From an uncultured bacterium (lineage in GTDB: Bacteria > Myxococcota > XYA12-FULL-58-9 > JABJBS01), in the NCBI GenBank assembly GCA_964013555.1, contig CAXGXL010000001.1:1-25666 (forward strand): a stretch of DNA of 25,666 nt, given 5' to 3'. Below are positions 4,136 to 25,666 of the stretch, piece by piece (within the stretch, counting starts at the first letter, position 1; the number at the start of each line of letters is the position of its first letter). The notes beneath the pieces were generated by a model. That model was not told where the DNA came from and ran no database searches. It worked only from the letters and a program-made list of their open reading frames with translations. A program made the translations under genes and the position numbers.

Positions 4136-4162
4136 ACAACAATCTTGTCTAACAACCGATAA
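4136..4162 (+). promoter_or_regulatory. Putative sigma-28 (FliA-like) promoter
   Basis: ACAAC-N14-ACCGATAA, a 7/8 match to the GCCGATAA -10 box, ending 41 bp before the GTG at 4204. Same spacing as the sites at 10645 and 23689. Confidence 0.5.
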
Positions 4163-4203
4163 ACTACAAGTAGGCTAAGTGAAAAATAACCCTAGGATGT
4201 AAT

Positions 4204-5697
4204 GTGCAAATAGGTACCAATGCAGACTCTCCCATGCGCCCACCCGCTGAATCCCGCTCCTCACGTCCTAATAGTCCTAGCTCACCCGACGTTGCTTGCT
4301 CCACTAACGATCTCCCGGCCAGTCCTGCTTGTAGACACCGAGGTTCGGAACCCGAGTCAGACTCCTCCCTCTCTTCGGTGGCAATTCTAAACCCAGCTCC
4401 AACACGAAACCAGACGTCATCCCCAGGCCAGCGGGAACGGACCTTCGAAGCACAAAAACAAGCGTGGACAACGATCTTCTGGCCCTACGCCGATTCCTCG
4501 ACGGATGGAAGGGGACACCCTTCTTTCAATCTTTGGGCCGACGGAGGCTGTCTCGCCAAATTTGACCAAGTCCTAGGAAAACGTGGACTGCCCGTGGGCG
4601 CGGTACGCCACGAAAAACGCCCAGCCCTCGGATTCCTGAAGCCAGGCGCAGACAGCCCTCCTGGTTACTATATCCCCTCGAACACGGTGCGCGAAGATGA
4701 CGCCGAACAAACCACAGGCGTCTCTTTTTCTGGCGGCGACTCCCTCAGGCCTGATGTCAAAAAGGATTTTCTCGATGACTTCGGCAATTTTGGCACGAAT
4801 GGCAAAACGAATGGCACACTGGATGTTAGTTGGTGGGGGAGCTGCGATGCAGTTGCCCTGGCGGGAATCACGTTTCGCGAACCTCTAAAGCCAGTAACCT
4901 ACCATGGTGTTACTTTTACACCACAAGATATCAAGGGACTTTTGGTTGTTTGTGCCTATAGCGTAGCCCCAGATAGCGAAGTTGTAGGTCCTCGATTCAA
5001 CGGACTTCCCGACGAAGTAAAATTGCGAGATGGAAATGTGTTGCGGGGTGCCATCCAAAATATGCGATTGCGTGATTTTCGACAAAATCACTCCCGACGT
5101 GAAAAGCCAGGATTCATAACATTGTATAACCCCACGCAATCTATCGAACTTAAGCTGGTGGACGGAAGTCTTCGCAAGATCGACAAGATGAAAATTCAAT
5201 CGATATGTCGGGAAGATCCTGAAGCATTATCACCTGCGCTCTTTCACAAAACACTCAAAACATGGCTTCGCGACAAACGACCATTTGCAATGGACTATGA
5301 CCCAGGTCCGGATGTTTGGAATGACAACTATGACAAAGCCAAGGTTGTACGGAGCTCTAAACCACCCGCGGACGTCAAAATAGAAAGCCTGAACGGACAC
5401 TCTGGAGATTATTCAGGAGGGGCAATCCGATTTTATCACACAACCCTCTATCAAAAAGGAATGGCTTCAGGCTCTTACCACTACTGGATCGAAAAGAAGG
5501 ACAATGTCGTAGTCAACAGTGGGTGGCTAGATAAAGCCTCTTACAAATCGAATCCAGATTTCATGTGGCGACCTAAAGATGGCGCAAACGTAAATTTCAG
5601 TGGAGACAACAAACGAAATCCCTTTGTCTTACCCAGGCTCGTCAAAGAGATCTATCTTTCCAGCCTCGCTCCCCCTTCGCCCAATGGGGAAAGTTAG
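4204..5697 (+). CDS. Transglutaminase-elicitor (GP42-like) family cysteine enzyme with Ser/Pro-rich N-terminal extension
   Basis: Motifs FWPY, SWWGSC, REP..VT..GVTFTPQDIKGLL, PALFH, DVWN, YHYWIE, NPDFMWRP and NPFV match the family pattern. AGGA lies upstream of the GTG start. Confidence 0.75.
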   Translation: MQIGTNADSPMRPPAESRSSRPNSPSSPDVACSTNDLPASPACRHRGSEPESDSSLSSVAILNPAPTRNQTSSPGQRERTFEAQKQAWTTIFWPYADSSTDGRGHPSFNLWADGGCLAKFDQVLGKRGLPVGAVRHEKRPALGFLKPGADSPPGYYIPSNTVREDDAEQTTGVSFSGGDSLRPDVKKDFLDDFGNFGTNGKTNGTLDVSWWGSCDAVALAGITFREPLKPVTYHGVTFTPQDIKGLLVVCAYSVAPDSEVVGPRFNGLPDEVKLRDGNVLRGAIQNMRLRDFRQNHSRREKPGFITLYNPTQSIELKLVDGSLRKIDKMKIQSICREDPEALSPALFHKTLKTWLRDKRPFAMDYDPGPDVWNDNYDKAKVVRSSKPPADVKIESLNGHSGDYSGGAIRFYHTTLYQKGMASGSYHYWIEKKDNVVVNSGWLDKASYKSNPDFMWRPKDGANVNFSGDNKRNPFVLPRLVKEIYLSSLAPPSPNGES

Positions 5698-5921
5698 ACA
5701 AAGGAACATTTCTCCGATTGCCATCTCCCTTGCGCATACTACAAATCAAGTGCCTGGTTCTACTCGCCTACAGACTCTCATAAAAACAAACTACTTCAAC
5801 CATTCCTCGCTAGTATTGCCGACGGCTCCAAACCCACGACAGGCAGCCACCAGCCTAGGTCAGTTGAGACGCCGGTAAATCAAAGTTAATGCCGAATTAG
5901 AATCAAACACTTCAAAACGGT

Positions 5922-8702
5922 TTAAAGTAGTTTCCCACTTCCCTCTAGCTCAAATTTAATAAGTTTACGACTCAAGCGAACCACCCGTTCTAAGAACTTG
6001 TAATTGCGAAACGTGTGTCCCATTAAATATAGCCCTAGTCGATTGATAATAAAGTCGTTTAACCCATAAAGATAACCCTTGCGCCACAACTCTCTATCAA
6101 GCGTCACCTTCGCAGCTTTCTCCAAACTGACTCGGTGAAGTTCAATAAGAGAATCAACCTCCTTTTTCGTAACTGTTTCATGCAAACTAAACACCAAGAA
6201 TTCAGCTAAATCCCGTTGTGGAATATGCAGAGTAGCCAACTCCCAATCGTAAGCACACAAAGTCAGTTTACCATCTTCCCCGCGTCGAAAGCCCAAGTTA
6301 CGTGGGTTAAAATCGCCGTGAATTAGCGTGCGAGGCATGGCCTCTATTTCACTCCACCAAGTTCCAATCTCACGGATAAGCTCATTGGCATATTCTACAT
6401 CCGCTTGCTCAAACCAAGAGGAAAACTCTTCACCCGCATGGCCTGTCAATGCTTGCCACAGAGGCTTCATCTCAACCATTGCCTCTGCAGACATCACCTC
6501 CCCGATCCACGACTCTTCTTTCAGAGAATCTTCTTGCCCCAAGCCAATACTGTGTAAATCAGCTAAGCCTACTATAGCCGCTTCATAGTGTTCCTTAGTC
6601 CACTCCGTGATATCGTTGGCAGTATTCATCAGCTCCAGATTACTCAGATCTTCAAGCACTAAAACATATGCCTCGCGTTTTGGGTCTTGGTGACATGCGT
6701 GAACCTTCGGAGTCAAACGCTTAAAAAGAGGATGATTTTGGCTGTAAATTGCCAGTTCACGTATATGACATGCCTTAACGCCTACGCGATCCTTAAATTT
6801 ATTGTAGGCAGAAGCCAATTGTCCACCGCACATCTGAGCCATCCCGTTGCTCATGAGGATAACCTCTTGATCAATAGGTTTGACTTTCACCATCACCTTC
6901 ATGTCCCGAGAAATTCCTCGGCCATCCATATAGTGAATTCTCTTAGGAAAGAGGCCAACCAATTTGTCGACCTTACGAGCAGTCAGTTCGGTTATGATGC
7001 TACTGCCCATCACCATCTCGAAATCCTCAACCTCTTTGACTTCAAGAGCTAAGTCCCCCAACTCTCGCTGCAAATAAGGCTCAAAAAACTTAGAGTTCAA
7101 ATCGGATTGGGTAAACCAATCTACGGGCCTATTACGACCCAGCTTGTCGTGAGCGGAAGCAAATTGCCCCGACGCCATTGCCGAAAGAGTTGAAATATCC
7201 AAAGCCAGACAATACCCGGCGATTATTTCAGCCAACCTCCCTGACCGGTTGGCCCCCTTGCACCCCATTAATTCGAGATAGTTGCCCTGATTGGGAAGAT
7301 TGGTTCCCCCTCCTACACTACCTACAATCAACGCAGGCAAATCCAATGAAAAATGAACTGCCGTGTCACTAGCGTGCACCCGTAGGTTTCCCAAACTAGA
7401 TTCATGAACCGATGCGATATCCTGACCAGTAGCAGTAAAGATAGCCGCTATGGCGTTTGCAATATTCACATTGTTGCCAAGCATACCTATGCTTATACCT
7501 GCAGCTACTCCATTCTCGTGGGTTTCTCGCAACTGCCGCGGCGTTACCTTAAGAACCTTCTCCAAGATTTCGTTAGGAATAAGAGCCTCCGCAGAAACTC
7601 GGGTACCGCGCCCAACCAAGAAGGACTGAAAGTTGGCCTTCTTATCCCCGCTCATGTTCCCGTCGACAGCAAACCGTTCTACCACTATGTCCGGATAAAA
7701 CTGCAACTGCTCCAAAAGCCACTGGCACGCCTTCCACGTGCAAGAAGTCGTCATGTTCTGACCGGCCGCGTCCCCAGTTTCATACGCAAATGTAATGTTA
7801 ACCCTGGGGCCGACTTGGTCAGGTAAGACTGCGGTCAAACGGGCATGTTTTGACACGAGACGTGTTTGGGCCCGAATTTCCTCCACATGGTCTTCGACCC
7901 AAGCACGAAAAGTACTCGCGGCCTCCGTCGAATTAAAGACAAAAAGAGGCACTCGAAACATTCGTTGCCGATGCACCCTAGTAGTAACCCCGCCAGAACG
8001 CGAAATCGCAACAGCTCCCCGCGTAGCCGACGCAACTAAAGCTCCTTCTGTCGTAGCCATAGGAGCGTAAATGGGCCCAATTACGTTGTCTCCCTTGAAC
8101 CAGAGAGGGCCAGCAAGTCCAACCGGTATCTCAACACTCCCCACCAAGTTTTCGATGTTGCCCGTCAAGCTCTCGGCAACCAAGTCTATTTTGTCTAATG
8201 TCTCTAGGCTTGCCCCCGAAACTCTGCGCGCAAACGCAAGGCGCTCTACGCGCGCCTCTTCCGTATAGTGACCGCGCCCCGGAATACGCTCTAGTTTCTC
8301 AGGTTGAACAGCCTCATAAGCTTCCGCCTCCTTGATGGTCTGCAATTGATGAAAAACTCGCCACAAAGTAGCTCGTGTCTCAGAGTCTTCACCCAAAAGA
8401 CCCAATTCGACATTGCCATCGGCGACTCTGACCACACGAGTCACCGTCAAACGCTCGAGAACATGGCAACTCAGAGCCGTCCCTAAAGAAATTCTTTCCA
8501 TTAACGACCCGGGAGCCGGAAACGCAGAAGCGGGTAAATTAAAGAGCACCCTTAAACCGTTTTCCGAAACGTCCATCACTTTACCGATATGTGAATCCCC
8601 TCCTAGGCTCAGTTTGACATAAGCACTCTTAAGCCCACCAAAAGCCTCATCGACATCCTGCATTTCCAACCGTTTTTTGGCCCGTTCAAGAGAATTGGTC
8701 AT
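5922..8702 (-). CDS. hmgA: PilZ - class I HMG-CoA reductase - APH/choline-kinase-like phosphotransferase fusion
   Basis: HMGR motifs ENLVG, PMATTEGALVAS, DAAGQNM, GDKKA, TGQD, GSVGGGT and SAH. C-terminal HGDFNPRN and YDWE. N-terminal RAKKR and DVSENG. GAGGTG precedes TTG 8708 and ATG 8702, and the spacing favours the ATG. Confidence 0.92.
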   Translation of the reverse strand: MTNSLERAKKRLEMQDVDEAFGGLKSAYVKLSLGGDSHIGKVMDVSENGLRVLFNLPASAFPAPGSLMERISLGTALSCHVLERLTVTRVVRVADGNVELGLLGEDSETRATLWRVFHQLQTIKEAEAYEAVQPEKLERIPGRGHYTEEARVERLAFARRVSGASLETLDKIDLVAESLTGNIENLVGSVEIPVGLAGPLWFKGDNVIGPIYAPMATTEGALVASATRGAVAISRSGGVTTRVHRQRMFRVPLFVFNSTEAASTFRAWVEDHVEEIRAQTRLVSKHARLTAVLPDQVGPRVNITFAYETGDAAGQNMTTSCTWKACQWLLEQLQFYPDIVVERFAVDGNMSGDKKANFQSFLVGRGTRVSAEALIPNEILEKVLKVTPRQLRETHENGVAAGISIGMLGNNVNIANAIAAIFTATGQDIASVHESSLGNLRVHASDTAVHFSLDLPALIVGSVGGGTNLPNQGNYLELMGCKGANRSGRLAEIIAGYCLALDISTLSAMASGQFASAHDKLGRNRPVDWFTQSDLNSKFFEPYLQRELGDLALEVKEVEDFEMVMGSSIITELTARKVDKLVGLFPKRIHYMDGRGISRDMKVMVKVKPIDQEVILMSNGMAQMCGGQLASAYNKFKDRVGVKACHIRELAIYSQNHPLFKRLTPKVHACHQDPKREAYVLVLEDLSNLELMNTANDITEWTKEHYEAAIVGLADLHSIGLGQEDSLKEESWIGEVMSAEAMVEMKPLWQALTGHAGEEFSSWFEQADVEYANELIREIGTWWSEIEAMPRTLIHGDFNPRNLGFRRGEDGKLTLCAYDWELATLHIPQRDLAEFLVFSLHETVTKKEVDSLIELHRVSLEKAAKVTLDRELWRKGYLYGLNDFIINRLGLYLMGHTFRNYKFLERVVRLSRKLIKFELEGSGKLL

Positions 8703-9020
8703 AGACAAACACCTCGGATTTACTTCTTTGTCGTCCCATACGGGTTAAAATATTCTTTTCTCGGTACAAGACTCTACTCCCCCCAAAAACAGCCAATAGA
8801 GAACCTCCAACCAAGAGTCACTCACTCCATTTAGAAAAGTGCTAACTCGAGTTATCACCAAGGTAAAACCAGACAATCGCAGGGCTGCTAGTATGAATTC
8901 AGTGGCTTAATTTCAATATCGATGATTCCTTGATACAATTGCTTCAAAAGAGCAATAATTCAACAGATCTGGCGAATTCGAAGGGGTCTACTCCGCTAAC
9001 CACCCTCAACTAGGCATAAA

Positions 9021-10253
9021 ATGGTCGAATCTGATAAATATATCACCTATCAAAGCGAGGGCGGCTCTCCCATCAAAGCATGGACTCGGGGGGTTCCTTT
9101 TGACGCCAAGGCCCAAGAACAAGTAAGAAACGTAGCCAATCTGCCTTTCATCCATGGATGGATTGCCGTTATGCCTGATGTTCATTGGGGGATGGGCTCC
9201 ACTATTGGAAGTGTCATTCCAACCGTGGGAGCCATCATCCCGGCAACCGTTGGTGTGGATATAGGGTGTGGGATGATGGCCGCAAAAACCACACTCACGG
9301 CCTCTCAACTCCCCAATAGACTCTGCGATATTCGGCGTGGAATTGAAATGGCTGTGCCTCACGGCCGGTCTAAAGGGGGGCGCAAAGGAGACCGGGGCGC
9401 TTGGCAGAGCATACCCAAGCGAGTTTATAAAACATGGGATACACTCTCGGATCGATTCTCTTCCCTAGTCAATACTCACCCAAAACTCGCCAACGCCAAT
9501 AGCATAACTCATCTGGGCACACTCGGTACAGGAAATCACTTTATCGAGGTTTGTTTGGACGAAAGTGACGCAGTCTGGGTAATGCTGCACACCGGATCAC
9601 GTGGGATCGGCCACCGAATTGGCATGTATTTCATTGAACTCGCCAAAAAAGACATGCTGCAACACAAGAGTAATCTACCCGATGAAAATCTCGCGTATTT
9701 TAGCGAGGGGAGCATGCACTTTGACCAATATGTGGAAGCAATCGGATGGGCCCAGGACTTTGCCCATGCCAACCGCGCCACCATCATGGAATCTGTACTT
9801 AATACATTGCAGCAAGCCCATGAGCTTCCGAAATTCGAAGCGACCCGTATGGTAGTTGATTGTCATCACAATTACGTCAACCGTGAGACTCACTTGAACA
9901 AGGCCGTTTGGGTAACGCGCAAAGGAGCGGTCCGAGCTGGCGCCGGTGAGCTCGGCATTATTCCGGGAAGCATGGGCGCGCAGTCGTACATCGTGCGAGG
10001 CAAGGGCTCCGAAAACAGTTTTCATAGCTGCAGTCATGGTGCGGGGCGAGTGATGTCACGAACCGAAGCAAAGAAACGATTCAGTTTGTCAGACCACCTC
10101 AGAGCGACTAAAGGTATCGAATGCCGCAAAGATACTAACGTCCTTGACGAAACCCCGGGGGCCTATAAAAATATCGATGCAGTAATGAAAGCGCAATCAG
10201 ATCTAGTGGATATCGTCCACACCCTACGACAGGTCATATGCGTTAAAGGTTAA
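9021..10253 (+). CDS. rtcB: RtcB family RNA 3'-phosphate/5'-OH ligase
   Basis: Motifs MPDVH, GVDIGCGM, GTLGTGNHFIE, HTGSRG, HHNY, RKGA, PGSMG, SHGAGR, DETPGAYK and terminal VKG. Confidence 0.97.
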   Translation: MVESDKYITYQSEGGSPIKAWTRGVPFDAKAQEQVRNVANLPFIHGWIAVMPDVHWGMGSTIGSVIPTVGAIIPATVGVDIGCGMMAAKTTLTASQLPNRLCDIRRGIEMAVPHGRSKGGRKGDRGAWQSIPKRVYKTWDTLSDRFSSLVNTHPKLANANSITHLGTLGTGNHFIEVCLDESDAVWVMLHTGSRGIGHRIGMYFIELAKKDMLQHKSNLPDENLAYFSEGSMHFDQYVEAIGWAQDFAHANRATIMESVLNTLQQAHELPKFEATRMVVDCHHNYVNRETHLNKAVWVTRKGAVRAGAGELGIIPGSMGAQSYIVRGKGSENSFHSCSHGAGRVMSRTEAKKRFSLSDHLRATKGIECRKDTNVLDETPGAYKNIDAVMKAQSDLVDIVHTLRQVICVKG

Positions 10254-10644
10254 ATTCCACCCAGGCTTGTATTGCCAATAGATTAATGGGGCAGTGATTT
10301 TCCTAGGCAGTCTGAAATTACCACCGACTGCATCCCCTCCACTTTCTCTACATCCATGAATACCATAAACCCAAGCCCAACCAACCCCGAAGACATCTCA
10401 AGGAACCTCCTCGACAAGTCCATTGCGCCCATTGAGGGCATAGAATAGCCACATTTTGATATCAGCAACCTAGCCTTCAATGGCTTCTGGCAGACTCTCC
10501 ATGTACCCTTAGTTCAAAGGTTCGAGAACAAACGGTTGCACTTGAGTCACAAATTCTCTCTCCCCTGGCTAAGGAAGGCATTGAGGTCCACAAAGTCGAT
10601 TTTTTGAAAGCAGACGAAACATTATAAAACCCTAAAAAAAACGA

Positions 10645-10671
10645 GAAACAACCTTCCCCTACCGCCGATAA
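10645..10671 (+). promoter_or_regulatory. Putative sigma-28 (FliA-like) promoter
   Basis: GAAAC-N14-GCCGATAA: perfect -10 box, with GAAA at the TAAA-N15 position. Ends 104 bp upstream of ATG 10776. Confidence 0.6.
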
Positions 10672-10775
10672 AGACAACGTTAATTGCCGGTTGAAGCTCA
10701 CCCGGTTCCCAAAAATTAGCGAGCCCAAAGCACTAATATTCAATAGTAATAAGAATAATAATAGGACCTGTACCC

Positions 10776-12530
10776 ATGACTAGCATTAAACTAACTCCTA
10801 CAAATGAGAATACCTCTGCGTTCGCGTCGCCGGCAACTCAACCATCTACGTCTCCCGAAAATTCTGGTCAGAATAACGTAAACCAGGCCGATGCGAGTGA
10901 GCTTAGCCAAGGAAGGGTGGCTGCACCGACGACTAACAATGACCCAATTGGTTCCTCTTCTAAATACCTCCTGAACGGCTTGACACTACCTCATACCCAA
11001 GTAGTAACCTCCTCTGACTCGGTAAAGCAGCAAAAGGAAACAGATTTGGATCCCATCTTCCAAAAGCAACGACAAGCTTTGTGCCAACGATATGAAGCAG
11101 CAAAAGAGGGTGCCCCCATCCACTTCGTCTTTTTGCCCACCCGATGCCAAGGACTGCCTCCATCCGAATTGGACACTTTCTATCAAAGTCGTTATCTATG
11201 GGAGTGCGCAAGAGCTGTAACCGAATTCCCCAATGCACGCGTAAGCTATGTCACCAACGATCCGGTCCACCGAGAGAACTTTGCTGAGTTAGTGAAGTAC
11301 CATCCCGACGCCGATAAAATTCTCGCTCGTACAAACTTTGTTGCCATTGGAGGGAACGCGAGCGATGGCATCCAATCAAGCCTACTTCATAGCGAGGAAG
11401 CTCTAGAAACAATTCGTTCACTCGGTAAACCCGAGGAAACAATCATGCGATGCTTCGCCTCTCAACCTGAGCTCTTTTCTATTAGTGAAAAACTGGGCAA
11501 TATCCCAGTAGAAGCCTCCCACTCCCCATTATTAGATGGGTGTGGAACCAAAAGTGGTGGTCGAGAAATCTTCAGTCGAACCACCCTAGATACCATCGAT
11601 GGGGCAAATCATATTCACCACATGGACCAACTCGTCTCGGAAATGAGCAAGCTGTGGCTTAGAAACCCCACTAAAACCAAGTTCATGGTAAAACTCAACG
11701 AGGCTGTCAGTGGGCAAGGCAACGCTATTGTAAGCTTTCCTAAAGATGTAGATCCTGCCTCCTTAAGAGCATCAGAGCGCGCCGATATAGTGCGGAACTT
11801 AGTCACTAAAGTCGATTTTAGAAGTACTGCCGTCAATTCAGCTAACTTTCCGGAAGTTCTTGCGGAACTTGGTTGCGCGATTGAGGTCCGAGCCACGGGC
11901 GATTCCGTTGAAGAAGTCATGGGGCATGCCTTTATTCACCCCAATGGTGAAATCGAATTTCTCGCGCCTACTTTGCACCACGTTTTAAATGGTGCACATC
12001 AAGGCGCTGCTTTTCCGGCCCCCAAAGAATATAGTGATCAAATCCAACAAGCGACCATCAAGGTAGGAGAAGAACTCCGTGAACTAGGAGCCGTTGGCTA
12101 TTATGGACTAGATTACCTAGCCGTAAAAAACGATGGAAAGACTCGCTTTCTTCCATTGGAGATCAACCTGCGCCAAGGCGGCAGCGTACATGGACTCGGA
12201 CTCGCTAAATTGGTAACCGGCGCAAAATACGATCAAGCCACTGCAACGCTACGTACCGAATCTGGAGAATGTGTTCACTACCGATTGAATAATCACATTC
12301 TCGATCAGCATTCCAATCTTTGGAAAAACCGACCCGTCTCAGAGCTTGAAGCTGCCCTCAACAAAAGCGACCTCTTGTACAACGACACTAAAGGCTGTGG
12401 TGTCATTCTGCATCTAAAAGAAGCTCTTCAACCAACTGGCCATATAGGATTCCTCGTTGTGGGACGCAATAATGACGAGGTAGATAGTATCTACCAGCAA
12501 GCTTCCCAGATAATGCAGAACGGCCGTTAA
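10776..12530 (+). CDS. PGM1-related ATP-grasp peptide ligase with disordered N-terminal extension
   Basis: Motifs ARVSYVT, GTKSGGREIF, VKLNEAVSGQGNA, GLDYL, EINLRQGG and GVILHL..IGFLVVG parallel the pre-ATP-grasp, ATP-grasp and PGM1_C regions. AGGA lies upstream of the ATG. Confidence 0.85.
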   Translation: MTSIKLTPTNENTSAFASPATQPSTSPENSGQNNVNQADASELSQGRVAAPTTNNDPIGSSSKYLLNGLTLPHTQVVTSSDSVKQQKETDLDPIFQKQRQALCQRYEAAKEGAPIHFVFLPTRCQGLPPSELDTFYQSRYLWECARAVTEFPNARVSYVTNDPVHRENFAELVKYHPDADKILARTNFVAIGGNASDGIQSSLLHSEEALETIRSLGKPEETIMRCFASQPELFSISEKLGNIPVEASHSPLLDGCGTKSGGREIFSRTTLDTIDGANHIHHMDQLVSEMSKLWLRNPTKTKFMVKLNEAVSGQGNAIVSFPKDVDPASLRASERADIVRNLVTKVDFRSTAVNSANFPEVLAELGCAIEVRATGDSVEEVMGHAFIHPNGEIEFLAPTLHHVLNGAHQGAAFPAPKEYSDQIQQATIKVGEELRELGAVGYYGLDYLAVKNDGKTRFLPLEINLRQGGSVHGLGLAKLVTGAKYDQATATLRTESGECVHYRLNNHILDQHSNLWKNRPVSELEAALNKSDLLYNDTKGCGVILHLKEALQPTGHIGFLVVGRNNDEVDSIYQQASQIMQNGR

Positions 12531-12741: not shown

Positions 12742-14106
12742 CTATTCGCAGAGTTTCTCTTCGCATTCCTGTATCGTTTTGAACTCCGTTTCATGGGTAA
12801 CTTCCCCGCAAGCACATTCCTCAAACTGCCCCCAAGATACCCGACCAAAGCTTCGTTTCTGACAGCCCACCGCTAACTCACAACTCGATTTTGTAACAAA
12901 GGGAGTCTTATAGTCTACTCGCCCGCAATAGCAATTCGCTCCGGCTCCCCATCCCTTTCTAGCCCACGTCCCAACCAGGGGCGCTGGAGCCGAACACGGT
13001 TCCACATTGCATTCCGTCGATTCTGTCATGGGTCCCACACAGAACTTCCCTCCATCCGCAGGAGCCGGATTGTCACAACGCCTAGACCGTCTTTTCGTTC
13101 CACCTCCACACACCTTCGAGCACCATCCCCAATTTGACCAAGCAGACCAACCACCATCAATTTTTTCCCCTTTTTCACATGGCTCCGGGTTGCATGAAGC
13201 CTCCTCCCTTAAAGGCCCAACACAAGTAATTCGACCGTTTTTCGTAACCGAACTCGCGCAAGTTCGCGTTCGCTCTTTCGTTCCACCGCCGCATTTTTTT
13301 GAACACCCACTCCATCTAGACCAAGGAGACCAAGCAGCCTTCGTTACTTTTTGAGAAACACAAGGCTTCGTATTGCACGGTGATTCTTGTGATGAAATTC
13401 CAATACAATCGCGTCCCCCATTCTCCGGAGCCGGGCTTACACAACTTCGTGTCCGCCTTTTTGTTCCACCACCGCAACCTTTGGTACACGAGCTCCATTT
13501 TGACCAAGCAGACCAGCCACCGTCTACGACCTTTTCTAATGGCGTTCGCCACTCACATACCCCCTTTAGTTCCTCCATTTGACACGCTTGTTTGCTCCCC
13601 ACTTTGCACCTCTCAGAGTTGGTCTTCGTCGGCACTTTCTCTTGACACTTCCCAAGAAAATCACAACCAGAATCCTCAGCGCAACGGCCACGACTAATGG
13701 GTTCTTCCGAAAGGAGACACTCTGAAGACTCTATTTCCAACGAACCACGTTGACATAACACATCGCGTATATGAGTACTCTCGCCACACTCGCCCTCACA
13801 CATTCTCCATGCCGAAAACGACCATTGGCCACAGTTTTCCCCCACGCAGGGCCGGTTGGTCGCTGGTTTCTTCGCCGAACACAGAGAATCTTCCACCACC
13901 GCATGAGACTTTAATTCCTGACACGAAACCCTTCTTAACTGAGTTCCGTTATTGCACTGAACTGAGCATTCACCGTATTCACCTATTTCCCATCCATGTG
14001 TTTTGCGCTCACTGCAACTCTGGTTAAGCAACACAACGAACACGCATAGGAGGTAAGCAAAAAAAGCTAGTATGGTCCGTCTAGCCTTCTTATTGCACCC
14101 CATCAT
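12742..14106 (-). CDS. Exported, possibly lipid-anchored, thrombospondin type 1 (TSP1) repeat protein
   Basis: Basic plus hydrophobic N-terminus ending NQSC31, two ADAMTS-type TSRs, three classical TSRs (DGGWSxWSxWxxCxxxCGGGxxxRxRxC) and 45 Cys. GGAG spacing may favour the second ATG at 14103. Confidence 0.9.
   Translation of the reverse strand: MMGCNKKARRTILAFFAYLLCVFVVLLNQSCSERKTHGWEIGEYGECSVQCNNGTQLRRVSCQELKSHAVVEDSLCSAKKPATNRPCVGENCGQWSFSAWRMCEGECGESTHIRDVLCQRGSLEIESSECLLSEEPISRGRCAEDSGCDFLGKCQEKVPTKTNSERCKVGSKQACQMEELKGVCEWRTPLEKVVDGGWSAWSKWSSCTKGCGGGTKRRTRSCVSPAPENGGRDCIGISSQESPCNTKPCVSQKVTKAAWSPWSRWSGCSKKCGGGTKERTRTCASSVTKNGRITCVGPLREEASCNPEPCEKGEKIDGGWSAWSNWGWCSKVCGGGTKRRSRRCDNPAPADGGKFCVGPMTESTECNVEPCSAPAPLVGTWARKGWGAGANCYCGRVDYKTPFVTKSSCELAVGCQKRSFGRVSWGQFEECACGEVTHETEFKTIQECEEKLCE
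12994..13527 (-). repeat. Three tandem intragenic TSR-encoding units with a 183-bp period
   Basis: The first Trp of each unit is at aa 198, 259 and 320 (61-aa period). DNA similarity is visible: tttgaccaagcagacca near 13135 and 13500, and gttccacc near 13097, 13280 and 13463. Confidence 0.85.
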
Positions 14107-17712: not shown

Positions 17713-17715
17713 TGG

Positions 17716-18909: not shown

Positions 18910-18911
18910 GG

Positions 18912-20312
18912 TTATTTTCCTTTCACTTTTCCGAGTTCATTCACCCAAGGGCCGCCCACCGCTGCGCGCAATCGCACTTGAGAAACAACCTGGGTTCGCT
19001 TGGCTCCAATAGCCGTCAATTGGCTCTGGTGAAAACTCCTTAGAGCTGTAAGGGTCGCAACATAGTCGCCAACTCCGGACAGATACCGGTCTCGTAATTG
19101 CTCATATGCCAACCGAGTTGCCGACAAAACTTCGGTGACTGCTTGCATCTGTGCCTTCGCAGCGCGCACAGTAGCTAAAGAAGTATCCACTTCGCTAATG
19201 GCTTTCCTATAAAGCTGCTCATAAGTTAAACGCGCCGCATTCAGATTAGCCTCGAACTCCTCGACCGCTGCTTGATCAGAGAAACCGTTAAAGAGTGGCA
19301 AAGACAATATAACACTGGCCCTCCAAGCATCTGTCTTTTGCAACTCCCTTTGAATCATATATTGATAACCGTACTGGCCTGATAATCGTAAAGTTGGCAG
19401 ATGCCTTCCCAAACTGCTAGCAGCTCTTGCTTTCGCCGCCTCGTAAAGCATTGCAGCACGACGTAAATCTGGTCGATGAAAAGCCAAGTCGGAAGGAATC
19501 CCCGCCCCCTTGGTCTCAATTCCATCCGGTAGTTCTACCGGTGTTGGCACAAGCGTCGTAGAACTATGAAGGCCAAGCAGAATTCCGAGACGCCGCTGAC
19601 TGTTCTTAACTAGAGCGTCGGCCAACGGAAGACGAGAAGCCGCTGTGGCAACCTGTCCTTTTTGCTGAAGCACTTCTACTCCAGAGGCTTCGCCTCTTTC
19701 AAAACGCAAGTCGATTACTTCTAAGAAGTCTCTACTCACTTTAAGCTGTTCTTGCAGAACTACCAATTGCTCTTTTGCAAGAATTAAGTCGAGATAAGCC
19801 TCTGTAATACTGAGTGCCAACTTAAGAGCTGCATGGTCAACCTCCGCACTCGTAGCTCCTGCGTTTTTTCGAGCGGCCTGATAAGCCAAATAAGTTCGGG
19901 CAGCATAATCCACAATGTAATCTGCTCGAAGTCCGACATTGCCTGTATAATAAACTCTAGATTGATCCAAATTATCCAGGCCGGAGTCACTCATGTAACT
20001 CGGATTCTGAATTCTGAACGAAGCCATAGGAGCCGCATTTAGCGTAGTGTCAAAACTGACCGACGGTAATAAAGGTGAAAAGGCTTGTTCAGTTTGGGCC
20101 CTCGCTTTGCGAATCAGCGTTCGAGTCGCAGCAATATCTCCATTTTCTGATAGCCCCTCCTCAATCAAAGCCTCCAATCCCACTAAACCGGGCTCTGTCC
20201 ACCAGGCTATTTGTGGCAGAGGACCGGCCGCTGGCTCCACAAAAGTAGGAGGAAGCCAGGAGGGAATCGGAATAGTAAACAAAGCCGTCGCAATAAAAAT
20301 ACCAATGAACAT
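18912..20312 (-). CDS. TolC-family outer membrane efflux factor
   Basis: OEP repeats (RFERGEAS..EVLQ, RPDLRRA, LSLPLFNG, RYLSGV). AAGGA RBS before ATG 20312. Lies 2 bp from the adaptor gene. Confidence 0.92.
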   Translation of the reverse strand: MFIGIFIATALFTIPIPSWLPPTFVEPAAGPLPQIAWWTEPGLVGLEALIEEGLSENGDIAATRTLIRKARAQTEQAFSPLLPSVSFDTTLNAAPMASFRIQNPSYMSDSGLDNLDQSRVYYTGNVGLRADYIVDYAARTYLAYQAARKNAGATSAEVDHAALKLALSITEAYLDLILAKEQLVVLQEQLKVSRDFLEVIDLRFERGEASGVEVLQQKGQVATAASRLPLADALVKNSQRRLGILLGLHSSTTLVPTPVELPDGIETKGAGIPSDLAFHRPDLRRAAMLYEAAKARAASSLGRHLPTLRLSGQYGYQYMIQRELQKTDAWRASVILSLPLFNGFSDQAAVEEFEANLNAARLTYEQLYRKAISEVDTSLATVRAAKAQMQAVTEVLSATRLAYEQLRDRYLSGVGDYVATLTALRSFHQSQLTAIGAKRTQVVSQVRLRAAVGGPWVNELGKVKGK

Positions 20313-20498
20313 TAGCAGTCCTTATTCGAAAACGAATCCGCTAGTAGTCTCATAGAAGCTATATTGTACCTACCACCGCCTAGCGGGATGAGCCTGGTGG
20401 TTGGCGATGAAATTACGAGTCTAAACGCCATTGTTAATGGTCCCCTCCTTGCCGCTGCGCAAAAGTCATAATTGGGCGTTCTTGCTGGCCAGAGCAGA

Positions 20499-20516
20499 AG
20501 TTAGGTAAGACTAACT
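20499..20516. promoter_or_regulatory. Inverted repeat AGTTAG-N6-CTAACT, possible operator
   Basis: Perfect 6-bp arms in the divergent intergenic region between the efflux operon and the REC-FHA gene. Confidence 0.25.
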
Positions 20517-20655
20517 AGCGAATCAAACGCTCTCGATCAAGAAAGAAACGCAAATAAAATCAAGCACTTGAGAAAAAACAAGGTGCCCCCGGTAGAGTAT
20601 TTGTCTCCTAGGCTGTCTCGCGTTAGCCTTAAAAGCACAACGGCAGGAGGTTCTT

Positions 20656-21897
20656 GTGTCTAACAAATCCGTATTATGCGTTGATGATAGCCGCGCAATA
20701 CGACGGTACGTTTCGGAAATTCTCTCACCGGACATTCATTGCATCGAAGCCGCCAATGGGCACGAAGCACTCCAGGTTTTAGCAACCCAAAGAGTAGATT
20801 TGATTTTACTCGATTTGGAAATGCCGGAACTAAACGGAGAAAATACTCTCAAAGAAATTCGGTTAGAGGGTATAACAACTCCCGTCGCGCTTTTCACTGC
20901 TGCTCGACAATACAGTCGGCTCGAAGAGCTCTTCCAACTTGACGTTATTGATGTGCTACTCAAGCCCTTAGAGGCTGGATTTATGAGAGAAAAAATCAAA
21001 GCACTTCTGCGCATTTCCGACGCCTTAGCACCTGCGCCTCCAATAGAAACGGAAGCCGAAGGTGCCCAGACTAGTGCCCCATCCGGCAAAGGAATGCGAA
21101 CCGTGGGGGCCTCTGCCCAAATCGATGCCAACTCATCATCAGAAGTAGCGGAAGACACAAACCAAGCGATAGTTCGGTATCTCGTTATCCAACAAGTAGC
21201 GAAGCCACTCTCGGTATGGCCTATCGAATTGGACGAATTCATTATCGGCAGGAGTAAAATGTGCTCGCTCGTAACCCCCGACGTCACCATAAGCCGAAAA
21301 CACGTCCGAGCAACCCCACTAAGTGCTGGACTGCAATTGACGGACCTCGGAAGTCAAAATGGTATCGGGTTTGCCGGCGAAACGGTTAGAGAGGTAATTG
21401 TAACTTCTGGACAGCAATTTCAAATCGGTAGATTTCTTTTTACCTACGAAGAAAAAAACGAATTCGACACACAAGCCCATCTGGGAGACCAATACACCCT
21501 CGATGGAAACCCAGCTATTTTGGCAAGAGTTTGCAGTGATGAGGGAGATCCTCGGTCTCAATCAACCGTATTCCTCGAAAAAGAAGTAATGAAGGAGATT
21601 TCAAATCGAATTCGCTTTAAGCAAGCACGCCTGGTATCCGAAAATCACCTCGCAGCCCCTATTTTGCTAGGCGATTACAATTGGACCTTCAAACGTAAGA
21701 AATGGGAAAGAGCGAAGAATAAACCAACCACAGGAACCTGTGGCATTTACTTCGATGGCGACCGCCACATAATCCGCTCCAATAATTCTTGGGGAGCTAA
21801 AGTCCACCGCAATAACGAGCTTCTTGAAGAGCCGCAAACTCTAAAGGAGGGAGATCTCATTTCAATTGGTAAACTTACGTTTCAATATGTCCTCTAA
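20656..21897 (+). CDS. Response regulator: receiver + FHA + degenerate FHA-like domain
   Basis: AGGAGG RBS before the GTG start. Receiver residues DD10-11, D53, T81 and KP. FHA motifs IGRS, SRKH and DLGSQNG. C-terminal LKEGDLISIGKLTFQY. Confidence 0.88.
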   Translation: MSNKSVLCVDDSRAIRRYVSEILSPDIHCIEAANGHEALQVLATQRVDLILLDLEMPELNGENTLKEIRLEGITTPVALFTAARQYSRLEELFQLDVIDVLLKPLEAGFMREKIKALLRISDALAPAPPIETEAEGAQTSAPSGKGMRTVGASAQIDANSSSEVAEDTNQAIVRYLVIQQVAKPLSVWPIELDEFIIGRSKMCSLVTPDVTISRKHVRATPLSAGLQLTDLGSQNGIGFAGETVREVIVTSGQQFQIGRFLFTYEEKNEFDTQAHLGDQYTLDGNPAILARVCSDEGDPRSQSTVFLEKEVMKEISNRIRFKQARLVSENHLAAPILLGDYNWTFKRKKWERAKNKPTTGTCGIYFDGDRHIIRSNNSWGAKVHRNNELLEEPQTLKEGDLISIGKLTFQYVL

Positions 21898-21965
21898 ACC
21901 GAAGTAGAGAAGGGAGCTGCAAGACAACTGAGAATCCAACTTCCGGCCCCACATGAGTTAGTACA

Positions 21966-22619
21966 TCACACTTTCCTACGTCGTTTTGTAGGGCACAGCT
22001 TTGTCAATAGCTTGATAAATTGCTCTTCACTCGCTTGTTGCCAAAATACAGGAGCGGTCCGGATCAGAGTCATGGCTCGACTCGGATCGAGCTCGCTGTA
22101 AAGCTCGTTATCTGTATCCAGCGCTCCTCCTTCAACTGCCTGCCGCATTCCCTGCTCTACGTGAACACTACCAATAGTAAAGGAAATCATGGCATAAAAT
22201 GCCTCTGTTGCCTCTTCTTCTGAACCAACCAAAGCACTCAACTCGGCCAATATATCCTCTAACAACTCCAAGGATGTTTGAGAGATACTCCGCGCCGTTC
22301 CTAACAAGGGAATCACCCCGGGATGAGTCAAGAGTCCCTCCCTAATGCGCCTAAAACTTTCAATAACCCACTTCCGACCCTTCAATTCGGTATGGCTAGT
22401 TACATCAAAAGAAGCAATCACTTTGTTCAGGAGTTGTTTTTCAATATCTGCTTTACTCTTAAAATGGCCATAAATGGCCATAGGAGATACCCCGATCGAC
22501 GCAGCTAACCTTCTGACGGTGACCGAGTGCAACCCACTTTCGTTCCCAATTTTCAACGCTGCGTCGATTACTTTTTCAGGGGTCAATCCACCCCGAGGTG
22601 CGCGTTTGCGCTTCGCCAT
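21966..22619 (-). CDS. TetR/AcrR family transcriptional regulator
   Basis: HTH LTPEKVIDAALKI..SVTVRRLAASIGVSPMAIYGHFKSK plus a TetR_C-like C-terminus. ATG 22619 has an AAGGAG RBS; the ORF-track extension to 22829 is probably non-coding. Confidence 0.92.
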   Translation of the reverse strand: MAKRKRAPRGGLTPEKVIDAALKIGNESGLHSVTVRRLAASIGVSPMAIYGHFKSKADIEKQLLNKVIASFDVTSHTELKGRKWVIESFRRIREGLLTHPGVIPLLGTARSISQTSLELLEDILAELSALVGSEEEATEAFYAMISFTIGSVHVEQGMRQAVEGGALDTDNELYSELDPSRAMTLIRTAPVFWQQASEEQFIKLLTKLCPTKRRRKV

Positions 22620-23688
22620 CTCAGTGCTCCTTTCCTTATTCCCTAGCGAACCGCCTAGCGAAATTCGTCCTCCGGACGCGCTGTATCGAACGGCCCCGAA
22701 AACCCTAGCCCCACTATACTCAAAGAACATACTATGGTCCACCGCCCGGACGTTCCAAACAATATCCGGTAAAGCGACAGGTGACTCCAAATAAGCAAGT
22801 AATACGGTAAAGTCTATTGGTCTAAACAAACAAGAGGGCGTCCTCCGGATCCGAAGGTTGAGTTAGGTAGCCCCCTACCAGCTCAAGAAGCTCAGCTGCC
22901 GGGAAAAGCGGCTCGCCTCGCTTGTGCATAGAGAGAATCAAGTTCAAAACACCTTGTCCTAATAGCCGAAACGTCAACTTCTTCAAAATAGACTCCAAAC
23001 CCGACCTCTCCACATTACATATTTTCGCAATATTTTTGAAACACACCAGTGGTATAACTAAGAGTGCTCTACGTTTCATTCGCCGTCTATGCGCGTCCTA
23101 CGACCTTGGCCAAATAGTCAACCACCTGGTGGGCAGTGTTTTCACCGTCTGTCGAATCGCGAATTTCCGCAACCCTGCTATCCCTTTTTGGGGCCCTGCA
23201 CTCTATGCAATACAAAAGAACCTCAGGGTTCTTAGACAGAACACAGCTGGAGCTTAAAACTCGGTCCGGCCCGAAATTGTTTGGTGCTGCCTCTTTGCGC
23301 AATGCGTGAGCAAAACAACGAAACAAGACCAGTTTCGCGAGAATATATTGATTACACTTTCTCGATTGAAGAGAGAATCGAAATCTCTTTTTTCTCTGGT
23401 TGATTCTCAGAGCCAACCTAAATGGAGCGGGCTCTCAATGTAGTGCCTTGCACACTATCTACTCTTCATTTGGTCGACCCAACCATATTCCAAAGACACG
23501 TCTTATCCTCCAACTCCTCAGAACAATTACTCTTCGCAGTCGATAAGTTTATCGTAGAGCACATGTCATAAGTTGCGAAAAGCTGACGAGTGGTCGCAAA
23601 AACCGGTCCACGCTGCCTCTAGCTGCACTAAAATAATAGGCACCCACTCAATTCGAGACGAATTTATTGAGATTGTTATGCCAAATAC

Positions 23689-23715
23689 ACAACTTTGAGT
23701 GGTTAAAGCCGATAA
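23689..23715 (+). promoter_or_regulatory. Putative sigma-28 (FliA-like) promoter
   Basis: ACAACTTT-N11-GCCGATAA versus consensus TAAAGTTT-N11-GCCGATAA (5/8 and 8/8). Ends 84 bp upstream of ATG 23800. Confidence 0.62.
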
Positions 23716-23799
23716 GATGCAGAGTTAAAACCAGAAACTTGTCTTTTAACGAATATTTGAAGCAATTCACAATAACTGAAGTCTAAGGCTCGCCCCACT

Positions 23800-25666
23800 A
23801 TGAAGTTACGCACTCCTACACGCTCGCTCTCCAATCCATCTCAGACAGGCCCACTGAGTTCACTTGCCACAATGCAAAAAGCAAAGTCGGTACCGGCTCG
23901 ACTTTCGAAGCCAATTAGGTCGGTCTGCGCCAATCTGGGGGAGCCCCAGCCCGTTATTGATGCTTTTCGAGAGCAGAACAAACAAAGCGCAGAGCTTTCA
24001 CTTCTTTCATCACCTGGCTGTGGCGATAACACAAATGGTCTCCCAGAACGCATTACGCCAACACAAAGTCGAAAGGCCCAGGCCAATGATGAACAATCAG
24101 GGTCCTGGAATTTGCATGAACTGCGAAGTATCGCTTCACAAAATGAAAGAGGCCGCTCAATAGGCCGAAGCGACTATAAATTCTACCTACCATCCGAACT
24201 CAATCAGGTTGTGGCAGATGGTAAAAAACTCGCCGTTTTTACCTCCGGCTGGTCAGAATACCCCAAAGAGCAAATGTCATATTTCAAGACCTTCTCACAA
24301 CAAAGAATGCTCGCAGCCAACTACCTTATGGCCCATTCCATTGAAAAGAAGGGTGGAACTTCGGAAATCACGGCCTTAACAACGCTTCCATTCTCGACAG
24401 CTTTTCGTCAGTACCTCTACAAAATTAGTAATCAATCCATAAAGGGATTCGAGGAATTCGACCGCAAATCTTATGAGGTTGTGCGTGTTCCAAGAAACCC
24501 TTACGACGACGTCGACTCAAGTAAATCTCTGGCAGAACAAACACCACCGGTAGTTCTTAAATCACTCCAAGATAAGGTGGCTCGACTTCGATCTGAGTCC
24601 AAGACAAACCTAGTTGGGTTATCCGTCTACAAAACCGACCCAAATTGGGAGAAACTCGCATCAAGACTCAATTTAAAATACCTCTCGGTCAGGGCTGAAC
24701 TAAACGAGTGGGGAACCAAAAGTGGCAGTCGAAAGATATTCAGAGAAGCCGGTGTTCCTCACGCGCGAGGTAGCTATGATTTGGTTCATTCTCAAGAAGA
24801 TCTGGTACGAACCATTGTTGATCTGACTCAAGAATATGGGCTCAAGAAAGTCATCATCAAACTCGATGAAGGCTGCGCGGGCAACGGAAATATGGTGGTT
24901 GATCTTTCCGACATCCACGACTCGCTAACTAACCAGCCCGCTAGCAGCTGCCGCGCTCTTATTGCCCAAAAAATTGCCGAGTTACCCAAGGAATACTTGT
25001 CGCAACTACCTAAAAACGGTGCCATCATCGAAGAGTATTTCGAAGGAAAGGACTTTTGCTCTCCATCGGTTGACGTTCTTGTTCAAGATACCAGAGACAT
25101 TCGAGCACTCACCGCGTACGATATGACCATGGGGGGAGAACAAAACCTCTCCTTTCGCGGGATTTTCGGCCCCTTTCAGTGGGAGCAAGACCTCAAAGGA
25201 ATGTCCGTTCAAACCGCGCGCGCGCTCGCCCATAAAGGCATTAGAGATCACCTGGCCGTCGATTTCGTGGTATTCAGAGATCCCCAAGGGGTTCAACAAG
25301 CTTACGCCGTAGAAGTCAATATGAGAAAATCAGGTGGCACTCCGCCCTATAGGATTCTCTCTTATCTAACCGACGACGACAACCTCGCCGGAAAAAGTTA
25401 TTACTCCAATGAAAAAGTGCCGCTCCCAGCCTTTAGAGAAATCAGTCCAAAAATGTGGCAAAAACATGGTGAGCAGATTGAACGAGACTTTTTCGAATGG
25501 CTTTCAGAGCAATCATTTACCTTCAACCCGGAGCGAAAAGAAGGGTGCGTCGTGCATTTTCATTGCTTCCCCAACAGCTCAGTCGGTGTCACGTGCATGG
25601 GAGAGAGCGTCGAAGAGGCAAAACAATTTCTTGAGAAATTCAGAACTGCAGTAGCCTCATTTGCAG
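23800..25666 (+). CDS. Second PGM1-related ATP-grasp ligase, 3'-truncated and absent from the ORF track
   Basis: Manual translation gives 622 uninterrupted codons from ATG 23800 (in-frame TAA at 23773) to the window end. Motifs WGTKSGSRKIFREAGV, IKLDEGCAGNGN, FCSPSV, LAVDFV, EVNMRKSGG and GCVVHF..VGVTCMG. Confidence 0.88.
   Translation, partial: MKLRTPTRSLSNPSQTGPLSSLATMQKAKSVPARLSKPIRSVCANLGEPQPVIDAFREQNKQSAELSLLSSPGCGDNTNGLPERITPTQSRKAQANDEQSGSWNLHELRSIASQNERGRSIGRSDYKFYLPSELNQVVADGKKLAVFTSGWSEYPKEQMSYFKTFSQQRMLAANYLMAHSIEKKGGTSEITALTTLPFSTAFRQYLYKISNQSIKGFEEFDRKSYEVVRVPRNPYDDVDSSKSLAEQTPPVVLKSLQDKVARLRSESKTNLVGLSVYKTDPNWEKLASRLNLKYLSVRAELNEWGTKSGSRKIFREAGVPHARGSYDLVHSQEDLVRTIVDLTQEYGLKKVIIKLDEGCAGNGNMVVDLSDIHDSLTNQPASSCRALIAQKIAELPKEYLSQLPKNGAIIEEYFEGKDFCSPSVDVLVQDTRDIRALTAYDMTMGGEQNLSFRGIFGPFQWEQDLKGMSVQTARALAHKGIRDHLAVDFVVFRDPQGVQQAYAVEVNMRKSGGTPPYRILSYLTDDDNLAGKSYYSNEKVPLPAFREISPKMWQKHGEQIERDFFEWLSEQSFTFNPERKEGCVVHFHCFPNSSVGVTCMGESVEEAKQFLEKFRTAVASFA

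Follow-up and report, generated by a model that had tools for sequence, protein, structure and literature searches.

A candidate sigma-28 paralogue regulon of leader-bearing proteins, probably linked to a type III export apparatus in an uncultured member of the Myxococcota

Three window genes with a shared promoter type

The stretch of DNA analysed here, referred to as the window, is the entire contig C1 (CAXGXL010000001.1, 25,666 nucleotides, nt) of a 4.6 Mb metagenome-assembled genome (MAG) from an uncultured member of the Myxococcota. The MAG, at 48.7% G+C, comes in 934 contigs; its completeness is 88.6% and its contamination 3.2%. DNA of the window is present in marine metagenomes; the genomes of relatives measure 2–11 Mb, some of them at 62–68% G+C. 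Three + strand genes of the window, starting at positions 4204, 10776 and 23800, each combine a promoter with a sigma-28-type −10 element, a polar N-terminus lacking a hydrophobic signal, and an enzyme fold associated with amide bonds. This combination, first noticed in a preliminary description of the DNA, was confirmed by scanning with a position weight matrix (PWM), by amino acid composition and by matches to Pfam and PDB entries, and it was absent from the other complete genes of the window, as that description had also stated.

The predicted promoter of the transglutaminase (TGase)-like gene lies at 4136–4162 (+), with the −35 pentamer ACAAC at 4136–4140, a spacer of 15 nt and the −10 heptamer CCGATAA at 4156–4162, and scores 22.2 bits with the PWM. 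That of the first ATP-grasp gene, at 10645–10671 (+), has GAAAC at 10645–10649 and CCGATAA at 10665–10671, again 15 nt apart (23.4 bits), and that of the second ATP-grasp gene, at 23689–23715 (+), has ACAAC at 23689–23693, a 15-nt spacer and CCGATAA at 23709–23715 (20.1 bits). All three genes therefore carry a pentamer ending in AAC exactly 15 nt 5′ of an exact CCGATAA, which lies 41 nt (4204), 104 nt (10776) and 84 nt (23800) before the start codon. Sites of at least 18 bits were found at no other gene in the window. Two weaker motif-like sites on the + strand precede the main promoter of the 23800 gene, at 23515–23550 (17.2 bits) and 22941–22976 (17.6 bits); these could be a second start site or chance matches.

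In the three proteins Ser, Pro, Thr, Asn and Gln abound in the N-terminal 80–115 residues, where there is no hydrophobic stretch, the maximum hydropathy over 12 residues at the N-termini being at most 0.6. The fraction of S, T, P, N and Q in the first 60 residues is 0.50 (4204), 0.58 (10776) and 0.43 (23800), corresponding to the 99th, 99.8th and 97th percentiles of the genome; it is 0.27 or less in every other complete gene of the window. In the 4204 protein the extension is Ser/Pro-rich and unstructured and covers approximately residues 1–80 (4204–4443). That of the 10776 protein, also unstructured, is about 86–95 residues long (10776–11060), and that of the 23800 protein is polar and about 115 residues long. 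Open frames of 80–115 codons would arise by chance with a probability of about 0.003–0.02 each, as estimated from base composition. By codon score each extension was the best of the three same-strand frames, and the DNA 5′ of the extensions was clearly non-coding. The 4204 extension was the least clear, one antisense frame scoring slightly higher. RBS-like (ribosome-binding site) AGGA sequences lie 6–9 nt 5′ of the starts at 4204 and 10776, that of the 4204 gene, which begins with GTG, being 6 nt before the start. All three extensions thus look translated, judging by these coding features.

The 4204 gene (4204–5697, +) encodes a predicted Cys enzyme of 497 amino acids with a GP42-type transglutaminase fold. 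The protein matches Pfam TGase_elicitor (PF16683) with 47 bits against a cut-off of 25, and PDB entry 3tw5, the Phytophthora GP42 transglutaminase, at E 1e-9 by sequence. When a structural model built on eight family members was used in Foldseek, 3tw5 was the sole significant match (E 5e-8, probability 1.00, target-normalised template modelling score 0.56). C214 aligns to the catalytic Cys of 3tw5, and D215 stands where GP42 has His. The sequence WWGSC214-D215 is invariant across the eight family members, so that the adjacent catalytic Cys-His of GP42 is replaced by Cys-Asp. The candidate chemistry could be that of a transglutaminase, a protease or a deamidase.

The 10776 gene (10776–12530, +) encodes a predicted PGM1/BesA-like ATP-grasp ligase of 584 amino acids. 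It matches Pfam ATP-grasp_IQCH (PF24923, 53.8 bits) and PGM1_C (PF18105, 32.4 bits) as well as the ATP-grasp ligase of PDB entry 8yi6 (E 8e-23). Its homologues elsewhere align only from about residue 89–136 onwards, none was found in the same genus or family, and a paralogue in this genome (C864) likewise carries an N-terminal extension. The 23800 gene (23800–25666, +) encodes a predicted, diverged ATP-grasp ligase of at least 622 amino acids, its stop codon lying past the contig end. It matches ATP-grasp_IQCH with 68.6 bits, by the ATP-grasp domain alone, and its alignment with the 10776 family begins at about residue 118.

The promoter motif and the proteins that it marks

Iterating the PWM over the genome gave the consensus a-c-GCAAC-N15-CCGATAA-t, with values of 0.7–0.96 in the −10 columns; the form seen in the window is [A/G][C/A]AAC-N15-CCGATAA. 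The genome has 51 intergenic copies of CCGATAA pointing towards a gene no more than 300 nt away. In 28 of them AAC stands at a spacing of exactly 15, compared with about 3% for any spacing at CCGATAA sites in coding regions. Sites of at least 20 bits in the MAG numbered 75 in a first tally and 71 in a recount, for which a reversed PWM gave 2 sites and a spacer shifted by 3 nt gave 3–4. Of the 75 first-tally sites, 71% were intergenic and gene-facing, against an intergenic share of 11.6% in the genome as a whole. Measured to the first start codon of the open reading frame (ORF) downstream, the sites lie at a median of 36 nt, with an interquartile range of 23–52 nt. From these patterns the GCAAC-N15-CCGATAA motif is a predicted genome-wide promoter that marks approximately 60–70 genes. 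A classical TAAA-N15-CCGATA promoter class was also considered and was rejected for this genome, as TAAA-N12-18-CCGATA showed no excess (9 sites at spacing 15, and 21 in the control).

The preliminary description had suggested that genes with the motif might be enriched for disordered N-termini. The comparison was made with 65 genes of at least 120 amino acids that have a site of at least 18 bits within 250 nt upstream. In their first 60 residues the median S/T/P/N/Q fraction was 0.38, against 0.25 in the remaining genes (p=2.5e-22), and the hydrophobic fraction was 0.25 against 0.37 (p=6e-29). Polar N-termini without signal were present in 30/65 motif genes and 104/3489 others (odds ratio 28, p=7e-27), and the suggested enrichment was thus found. 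N-termini resembling hydrophobic signal peptides occurred in 1/65 motif genes and 1151/3489 others (p=4e-10). P, T, N, S and Q were over-represented, and L, E, F, C, Y and W under-represented. The bias was seen both in residues 2–25 and in residues 26–60, and was gone by residues 151–400. In composition, and by composition alone, the motif genes have what characterises substrates of type III secretion systems (T3SSs): no Sec signal, and an N-terminus rich in Ser, Thr, Pro and Asn and poor in Leu and acidic residues. The polar segments of the regulon proteins often extend to 50–250 unstructured residues. Export signals of type III systems, with linkers behind them, have this composition, and we therefore read the motif proteins as putative T3SS substrates.

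Besides the window genes, the regulon includes a circularly permuted ATP-grasp protein, an ABC1 kinase, two Ser/Thr kinases, three PLD proteins, a MafB19/Bd3614-type deaminase, two animal-type haem peroxidases, two caleosins, a chagasin-type protease inhibitor, two ankyrin proteins (one with a DnaJ domain), a mitochondrial-carrier protein (C585, 94.9 bits), alpha/beta hydrolases, an Asp/Glu racemase and a cupin. Two further members have motif-less paralogues in the same genome. The regulon threonine dehydratase (IlvA; C202:4454-6274) has about 104 extra N-terminal residues relative to its paralogue at C8:1919-3421, and the regulon alanine racemase (Alr; C128:5943-7388) about 76 relative to C342:1706-2818; both motif-less copies begin directly at the catalytic domain. 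The preliminary description had proposed that biosynthetic ligases were repurposed as exported effectors. That proposal is echoed by the extended IlvA and Alr copies. Taken by its domains, the content of the regulon is that of a putative effector repertoire, and it lends independent support to the repurposing of enzymes by addition of a putative export leader.

The TGase-fold family has five full-length members in the genome, including the 4204 protein, and two distant ones (C438 and C886). Sites of 20–22 bits are present at the 4204 gene, C48 and C32; C183 has a site of 16.6 bits and C698 has none. The distant members have sites of 22.8 bits (C438) and 17.8 bits (C886), so that a site of approximately 16.6–23 bits precedes six of the seven. 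C48 is without an extension. In relatives, the nearest TGase homologues lack the long extension and have only 10–20 residues before the conserved core. Homologues of the family in three relatives from two genera retain a promoter of the motif type, scoring 21.7 bits in G005 and 24.3 bits in G002. In the third, G001, the promoter is best matched when the spacer is set to 16 nt; in the 15-nt register it reaches only 13 bits.

Several regulon or family proteins have N-termini that are Arg-rich, free of acidic residues and amphipathic-looking, such as MLRALSRTLLHAPRAARTR. They occur at C183:2082-3557, C202:4454-6274, C95:2706-3416, C191, C97:1-1053 and C17:11377-12279, and resemble eukaryotic mitochondrial presequences. 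Together with the mitochondrial-carrier member, these N-termini are hints of organelle-directed effectors.

The neighbours of the window ATP-grasp genes are RtcB, a thrombospondin type 1 (TSP1)-repeat protein, a resistance-nodulation-division (RND) efflux operon and a TetR regulator. The TSP1-repeat protein (12742–14106, −) has at least four repeats and a classical hydrophobic signal peptide, and would be Sec-exported and outside the motif regulon. The gene at 5922–8708 (−), in which HMG-CoA reductase is joined to an EcKL/APH-type kinase domain (Pfam 345 and 47 bits), lacks the motif, and the N-terminus of its product is unremarkable. At the other end of the window a circularly permuted ATP-grasp gene (3–1256, +) is cut by the contig start, its promoter lying beyond the edge. 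A second circularly permuted ATP-grasp protein (C20, 1152 amino acids) belongs to the motif regulon.

Sigma factors and the type III export apparatus

The fliA and type III export genes on which the preliminary description relied are present in the MAG. The sole FHIPEP protein found is SctV, scoring 722 bits with TIGR01399 (cut-off 692) and 607 bits with the FlhA model TIGR01398, under the cut-off of 772. SctN (612 bits, cut-off 604.75) is encoded on contig C161, in an operon with the order sigma factor, SctI-like, SctJ, FliG-like, SctL, SctN, FliJ/SctO-like. The matches to SctJ, SctL and FliJ/SctO-like, and the weak one to SctI-like, are all under the equivalog cut-offs. The faint FliG-like match is to a gene of 357 amino acids (L102, on C161, 3589–4662, −) at the position of sctK/sctD; such a flagellum-like trait in a non-flagellar system is what an early-branching T3SS would be expected to show. 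The genome is also flagellated, having flagellin, FliF, FliI and a FliA proper (C235; TIGR02479 228 bits, cut-off 189.6) in a flhG-fliA-flgF-flgG cluster.

The C161 sigma factor is therefore the second sigma-28 relative in this genome. It has 259 amino acids as called, its probable start being residue 12 of the called ORF, and its best models are FliA and WhiG (158 and 142 bits), under the cut-off of 189.6. Regions 2, 3 and 4 align to FliA structures, and in its nearest Atlas cluster Myxococcota is the commonest group. The recognition helix of region 4.2 reads SESRVCQ in FliA proper and SESRVSQ in the Pseudomonas FliA structure, and SKSWTSR in the paralogue. This changed helix matches the changed −35 element of the motif (TAAA to GCAAC), in which the sigma-28-type −10 is kept. 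Where the sigma ORF begins there is a 17.5-bit site (C161 7083–7119). It was considered as an autoregulatory promoter and rejected because its −10 runs into both the upstream gene's stop codon and the likely ATG.

The order sigma-sctI-sctJ is kept in all five order-level loci inspected (G001, G002, G005, G011 and G016), and also in G029, a distant relative of another family with a 9 Mb genome, whose sigma is 43% identical. G029 has a T3SS cluster with SctQ, SctT, SctU, an LcrH/SycD chaperone and SctV (locus L226, G029:C57:146000-165999). Inside this cluster a 20.9-bit motif (L226 4611–4646, −) lies just 3′ of the LcrH/SycD-type chaperone gene and upstream of two ORFs of unknown function and sctV; the sigma orthologue is found about 17 kb from the site, followed by sctI and sctJ.

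The exact pattern GCAAC-N15-CCGATAA was counted in 41 genomes, which are related MAGs, so that the distribution is a pattern and not a statistic. There were 20 occurrences in the present genome and up to 48 in order-level relatives, with 0–2 for the reversed control. G006, G012 and G017, which are 95–100% complete, have SctV and the paralogue together with 17, 4 and 29 sites, and no flagellin, FlhA or FliA was found in them. Conversely, G024, G032 and G038 have FliA, lack the T3SS sigma and have no sites. G003 is an exception to the pattern, with 3 sites. G004 was dropped as an aflagellate relative, having five flagellin genes, and G014 was treated cautiously, being 89% complete with flagellated congeners.

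Flagellin promoters were compared in G018, G007 and G002. They have the form TAAAGG(T/C)(T/C)T-N11-(G/A)CGATG, and not GCAAC-N15-CCGATAA; in relatives with both sigma factors the flagellin promoters are thus, by their sequence, a separate class of classical type. Taken together, the recognition helix, the gene order at the operon, the distribution of sites and the separate flagellin promoters suggest that the T3SS-linked sigma-28 paralogue, and not FliA, is the probable reader of the GCAAC-N15-CCGATAA promoter.

Interpretation and comparison with known systems

The explanation that we favour, with a fair degree of reservation, is that the T3SS-linked sigma-28 paralogue drives a regulon of candidate T3SS effectors which includes the three window genes. 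Once the T3SS operon is expressed, its sigma factor would direct RNA polymerase to the GCAAC-N15-CCGATAA promoters, and a set of leader-bearing proteins would be made. The SctV/SctN export apparatus may recognise their polar N-termini; the long disordered stretches may keep the cargo unfolded or serve as spacers. On balance we lean slightly towards export of the regulon proteins by this T3SS. In the window, the Cys-Asp enzyme with the GP42 fold might cross-link, deamidate or cleave target proteins, and the two ATP-grasp ligases might catalyse amide-bond formation on peptides or metabolites of the target; in this way the window enzymes would modify a target cell's proteins, peptides or wall precursors. 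The motif with its spacing, its placement ahead of genes and its conservation, the N-terminal bias and the presence of the T3SS and sigma genes were observed; sigma specificity, export, its route, the enzymatic activities and the target are all matters that we infer. The mitochondrial-carrier, ankyrin and caleosin members and the presequence-like N-termini are a hint of a eukaryotic target, and the myxobacterial precedent points, by analogy, to bacterial prey.

Other explanations were weighed against this one. The preliminary description had named sigma-28 (FliA) as the regulator, and type III and flagellar export as precedents. On such a reading the flagellar FliA would be the regulator and the flagellum the export route, in the manner of an extended late-flagellar or 'attack-phase' programme with export through the flagellar gate as in Campylobacter. 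The −10 element is indeed the canonical CCGATAA of sigma-28, a bona fide FliA is encoded in a flagellar cluster of a genome with flagellin, and FliA governs some two thirds of the attack-phase promoters that have been mapped in Bdellovibrio, by way of TTAAG-N16-CCGATA (PMC3627812). The −35 element, however, is GCAAC and neither TAAA nor TTAAG, the −35-reading helix of FliA is canonical, and TAAA-N12-18-CCGATA is not in excess in the genome. The flagellin promoters of three relatives belong to a different class, and the motif persists in three relatives for which flagellin, FlhA and FliA all went undetected and is absent from three that have FliA without the T3SS sigma. The only FHIPEP protein found is SctV, and we consider both the flagellar regulator and the flagellar route improbable. 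A purely technical explanation, that the true starts lie 3′ of the extensions, with the 'disordered N-termini' being untranslated leaders and the promoter incidental, could draw on the GTG start of the 4204 gene and on the short stretch of 10–20 residues before the core in its closest homologues. It is opposed by the improbability of such long open frames, by the codon scores of the extensions and the clearly non-coding DNA upstream, by the AGGA sequences at 4204 and 10776, by the tight distances between motif and start, and by the recurrence of the same architecture in dozens of unrelated genes, and it seems to us very improbable indeed.

A different possibility is that the regulon is real and most of its products stay inside the cell, as part of a developmental or life-cycle programme that is turned on along with the T3SS and in which the polar N-termini serve regulated proteolysis, localisation or the formation of condensates. 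Folds that are usual in metabolism or signalling are frequent among the members (threonine dehydratase, racemases, ABC1 and Ser/Thr kinases, cupin, ATP-grasps), and the outer-membrane conduit of a T3SS was not found. Programmes of sigma-28 relatives that are not secretory are also known, such as WhiG in Streptomyces (PMC12871210) and the Bdellovibrio attack phase (PMC3627812). Against an intracellular role, the compositional bias is limited to the first 60 or so residues, as in T3SS signals, and extended copies exist alongside unextended housekeeping paralogues. Mitochondrial-carrier, ankyrin, caleosin, PLD and toxin-type deaminase proteins would be odd in a bacterial cytoplasm, and the sigma gene lies within a T3SS operon. 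We regard this possibility as unlikely.

Several observations weigh against the effector interpretation, or against parts of it. SctC over the cut-off was not found in this MAG or in five relatives that are 92–100% complete; the best TIGR02516 (SctC) matches here, at 142 bits (cut-off 238), are more readily accounted for as PilQ. The SctF model TIGR02105 matched nothing in five genomes, nor in any control genome. Roughly half the proteins of the regulon lack any Pfam match. In the AlphaFold models the predicted local distance difference test (pLDDT) score is below 35 over residues 1–72 of the 4204 protein and below 50 over residues 1–86 of the 10776 protein, whose fold is confident from residue 90 (predicted template modelling score 0.77); the extensions have no alignment depth, and their low pLDDT is partly due to missing aligned homologues. 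ORFs were called by a crude longest-ORF rule, the same for motif and non-motif genes. As regards the regulator, the sigma gene of G018 adjoins an RND efflux operon and not sctI/sctJ, and G008 has 10 sites and SctV, yet a search for a close orthologue of the T3SS sigma found none there. The genomes compared are not independent of one another. The flagellin gene of this MAG lies at a contig edge with its promoter off the contig, so that the promoter comparison comes from relatives, and FliA proper, being present in the same cell, may also recognise the motif. Marine metatranscriptomes from the same or related samples yielded a single 151-nt contig that matches the TGase-like gene exactly at 4832–4979. 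This is weak evidence of transcription of the 4204 gene in situ, and DNA carry-over is possible.

A broader version of the effector interpretation would make the re-specified sigma-28 paralogue the master regulator of a secretin-less and needle-less T3SS across a whole order, probably one of the Myxococcota. The promoter would then provide the first catalogue of the substrates of that system that is readable from genomes, with housekeeping enzymes, ligases and cross-linkers that have disordered leaders for export, and with organelle-directed eukaryote-like proteins; the system might be used against eukaryotic cells in addition to, or instead of, bacterial prey. We put this forward tentatively and with considerable doubt.

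If the promoter does mark the cargo of a needle-less T3SS, effector lists for an order of uncultured marine bacteria could be taken directly from their genomes and then tested in cultivable relatives. The case would also be a clear one of sigma duplication in which the −10 half of the promoter was kept and the −35 half rewritten, the rewritten −35 insulating the secretion regulon from the flagellar regulon of the same cell. The candidate cargo is itself unusual: besides ATP-grasp ligases and racemases it includes a transglutaminase-fold family with Cys-Asp, a threonine dehydratase and a mitochondrial-carrier protein, and many of these proteins have long disordered leaders.

T3SS regulons under a dedicated sigma factor (HrpL and the hrp box) and large non-flagellar sigma-28 regulons (Bdellovibrio, Chlamydia) are already known. 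In the literature searched, we found no description of a sigma-28 paralogue in a secretin-less T3SS cluster that has a hybrid promoter, exists beside a FliA with another promoter, and marks 60–70 leader-bearing proteins. The window enzymes themselves have characterised counterparts. The ATP-grasp proteins share fold and family signatures with PGM1 (of pheganomycin) and BesA; the known enzymes are encoded in biosynthetic clusters and have no N-terminal extensions, whereas the window genes lie outside such a cluster. The 4204 protein likewise shares fold and family signature with Phytophthora GP42, but has the invariant Cys-Asp of its family in place of the Cys-His active site.

The hrp box is a two-block promoter found before T3SS genes and before scattered effector genes, and can be used to list effectors. 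HrpL of Pseudomonas syringae and Erwinia is described as a dedicated alternative sigma factor tied to a T3SS (PMC5263251). The system proposed here is similar in having one conserved promoter before many unlinked candidate effector genes and a T3SS-linked sigma gene, and its −35 element resembles the GGAAC type of hrp promoters. HrpL, however, is an extracytoplasmic function (group 4) sigma factor, whereas the C161 sigma is FliA/WhiG-like and its predicted promoter keeps the CCGATAA of sigma-28; hosts and lineage also differ, and secretin and needle were not found here.

In the predatory bacterium Bdellovibrio bacteriovorus the FliA regulon has more than 90 promoters, mostly of non-flagellar genes (PMC3627812), and a sigma-28-type promoter has thus been recruited to many non-flagellar genes, as here. 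The proposed regulator there is the single flagellar FliA, with a TTAAG −35, and neither T3SS linkage nor an N-terminal signature is reported (PMC3627812). In the present genome we find instead a sigma paralogue and a changed −35, with a separate class of flagellin promoters in its relatives. The chlamydial sigma-28 promoter keeps a −35 of the TAAA type. Chlamydia sigma-28 is reported to control late non-flagellar genes in a T3SS-bearing bacterium (PMC12282069, 10.1101/2023.04.27.538638), which is the pairing of a sigma-28-family factor and non-flagellar genes that we propose here. The chlamydial regulon differs in being small, and its sigma-28 is not a second paralogue beside a flagellar FliA.

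The apparatus itself is most readily compared with the 'needle-less' T3SS* of Myxococcus xanthus (mxan_2434-2464), an injectisome-type apparatus with a sorting platform and without detectable secretin, needle or translocon, which is needed for prey lysis and whose effectors are reported as unknown (PMC10433427, PMC12075869); one of these reports speaks of 'potential T3SS effectors' (PMC12075869). T3SS* is conserved in a lineage of predators and has LcrH-type chaperones in its cluster (PMC10433427, PMC12075869). The present system shares with it an export apparatus without a detected secretin and, in the relative G029, an LcrH-type chaperone in the cluster. No sigma factor or promoter is described for T3SS* (PMC10433427, PMC12075869), whereas both are proposed here, in a lineage that is also flagellated and with a regulon rich in eukaryote-type domains.

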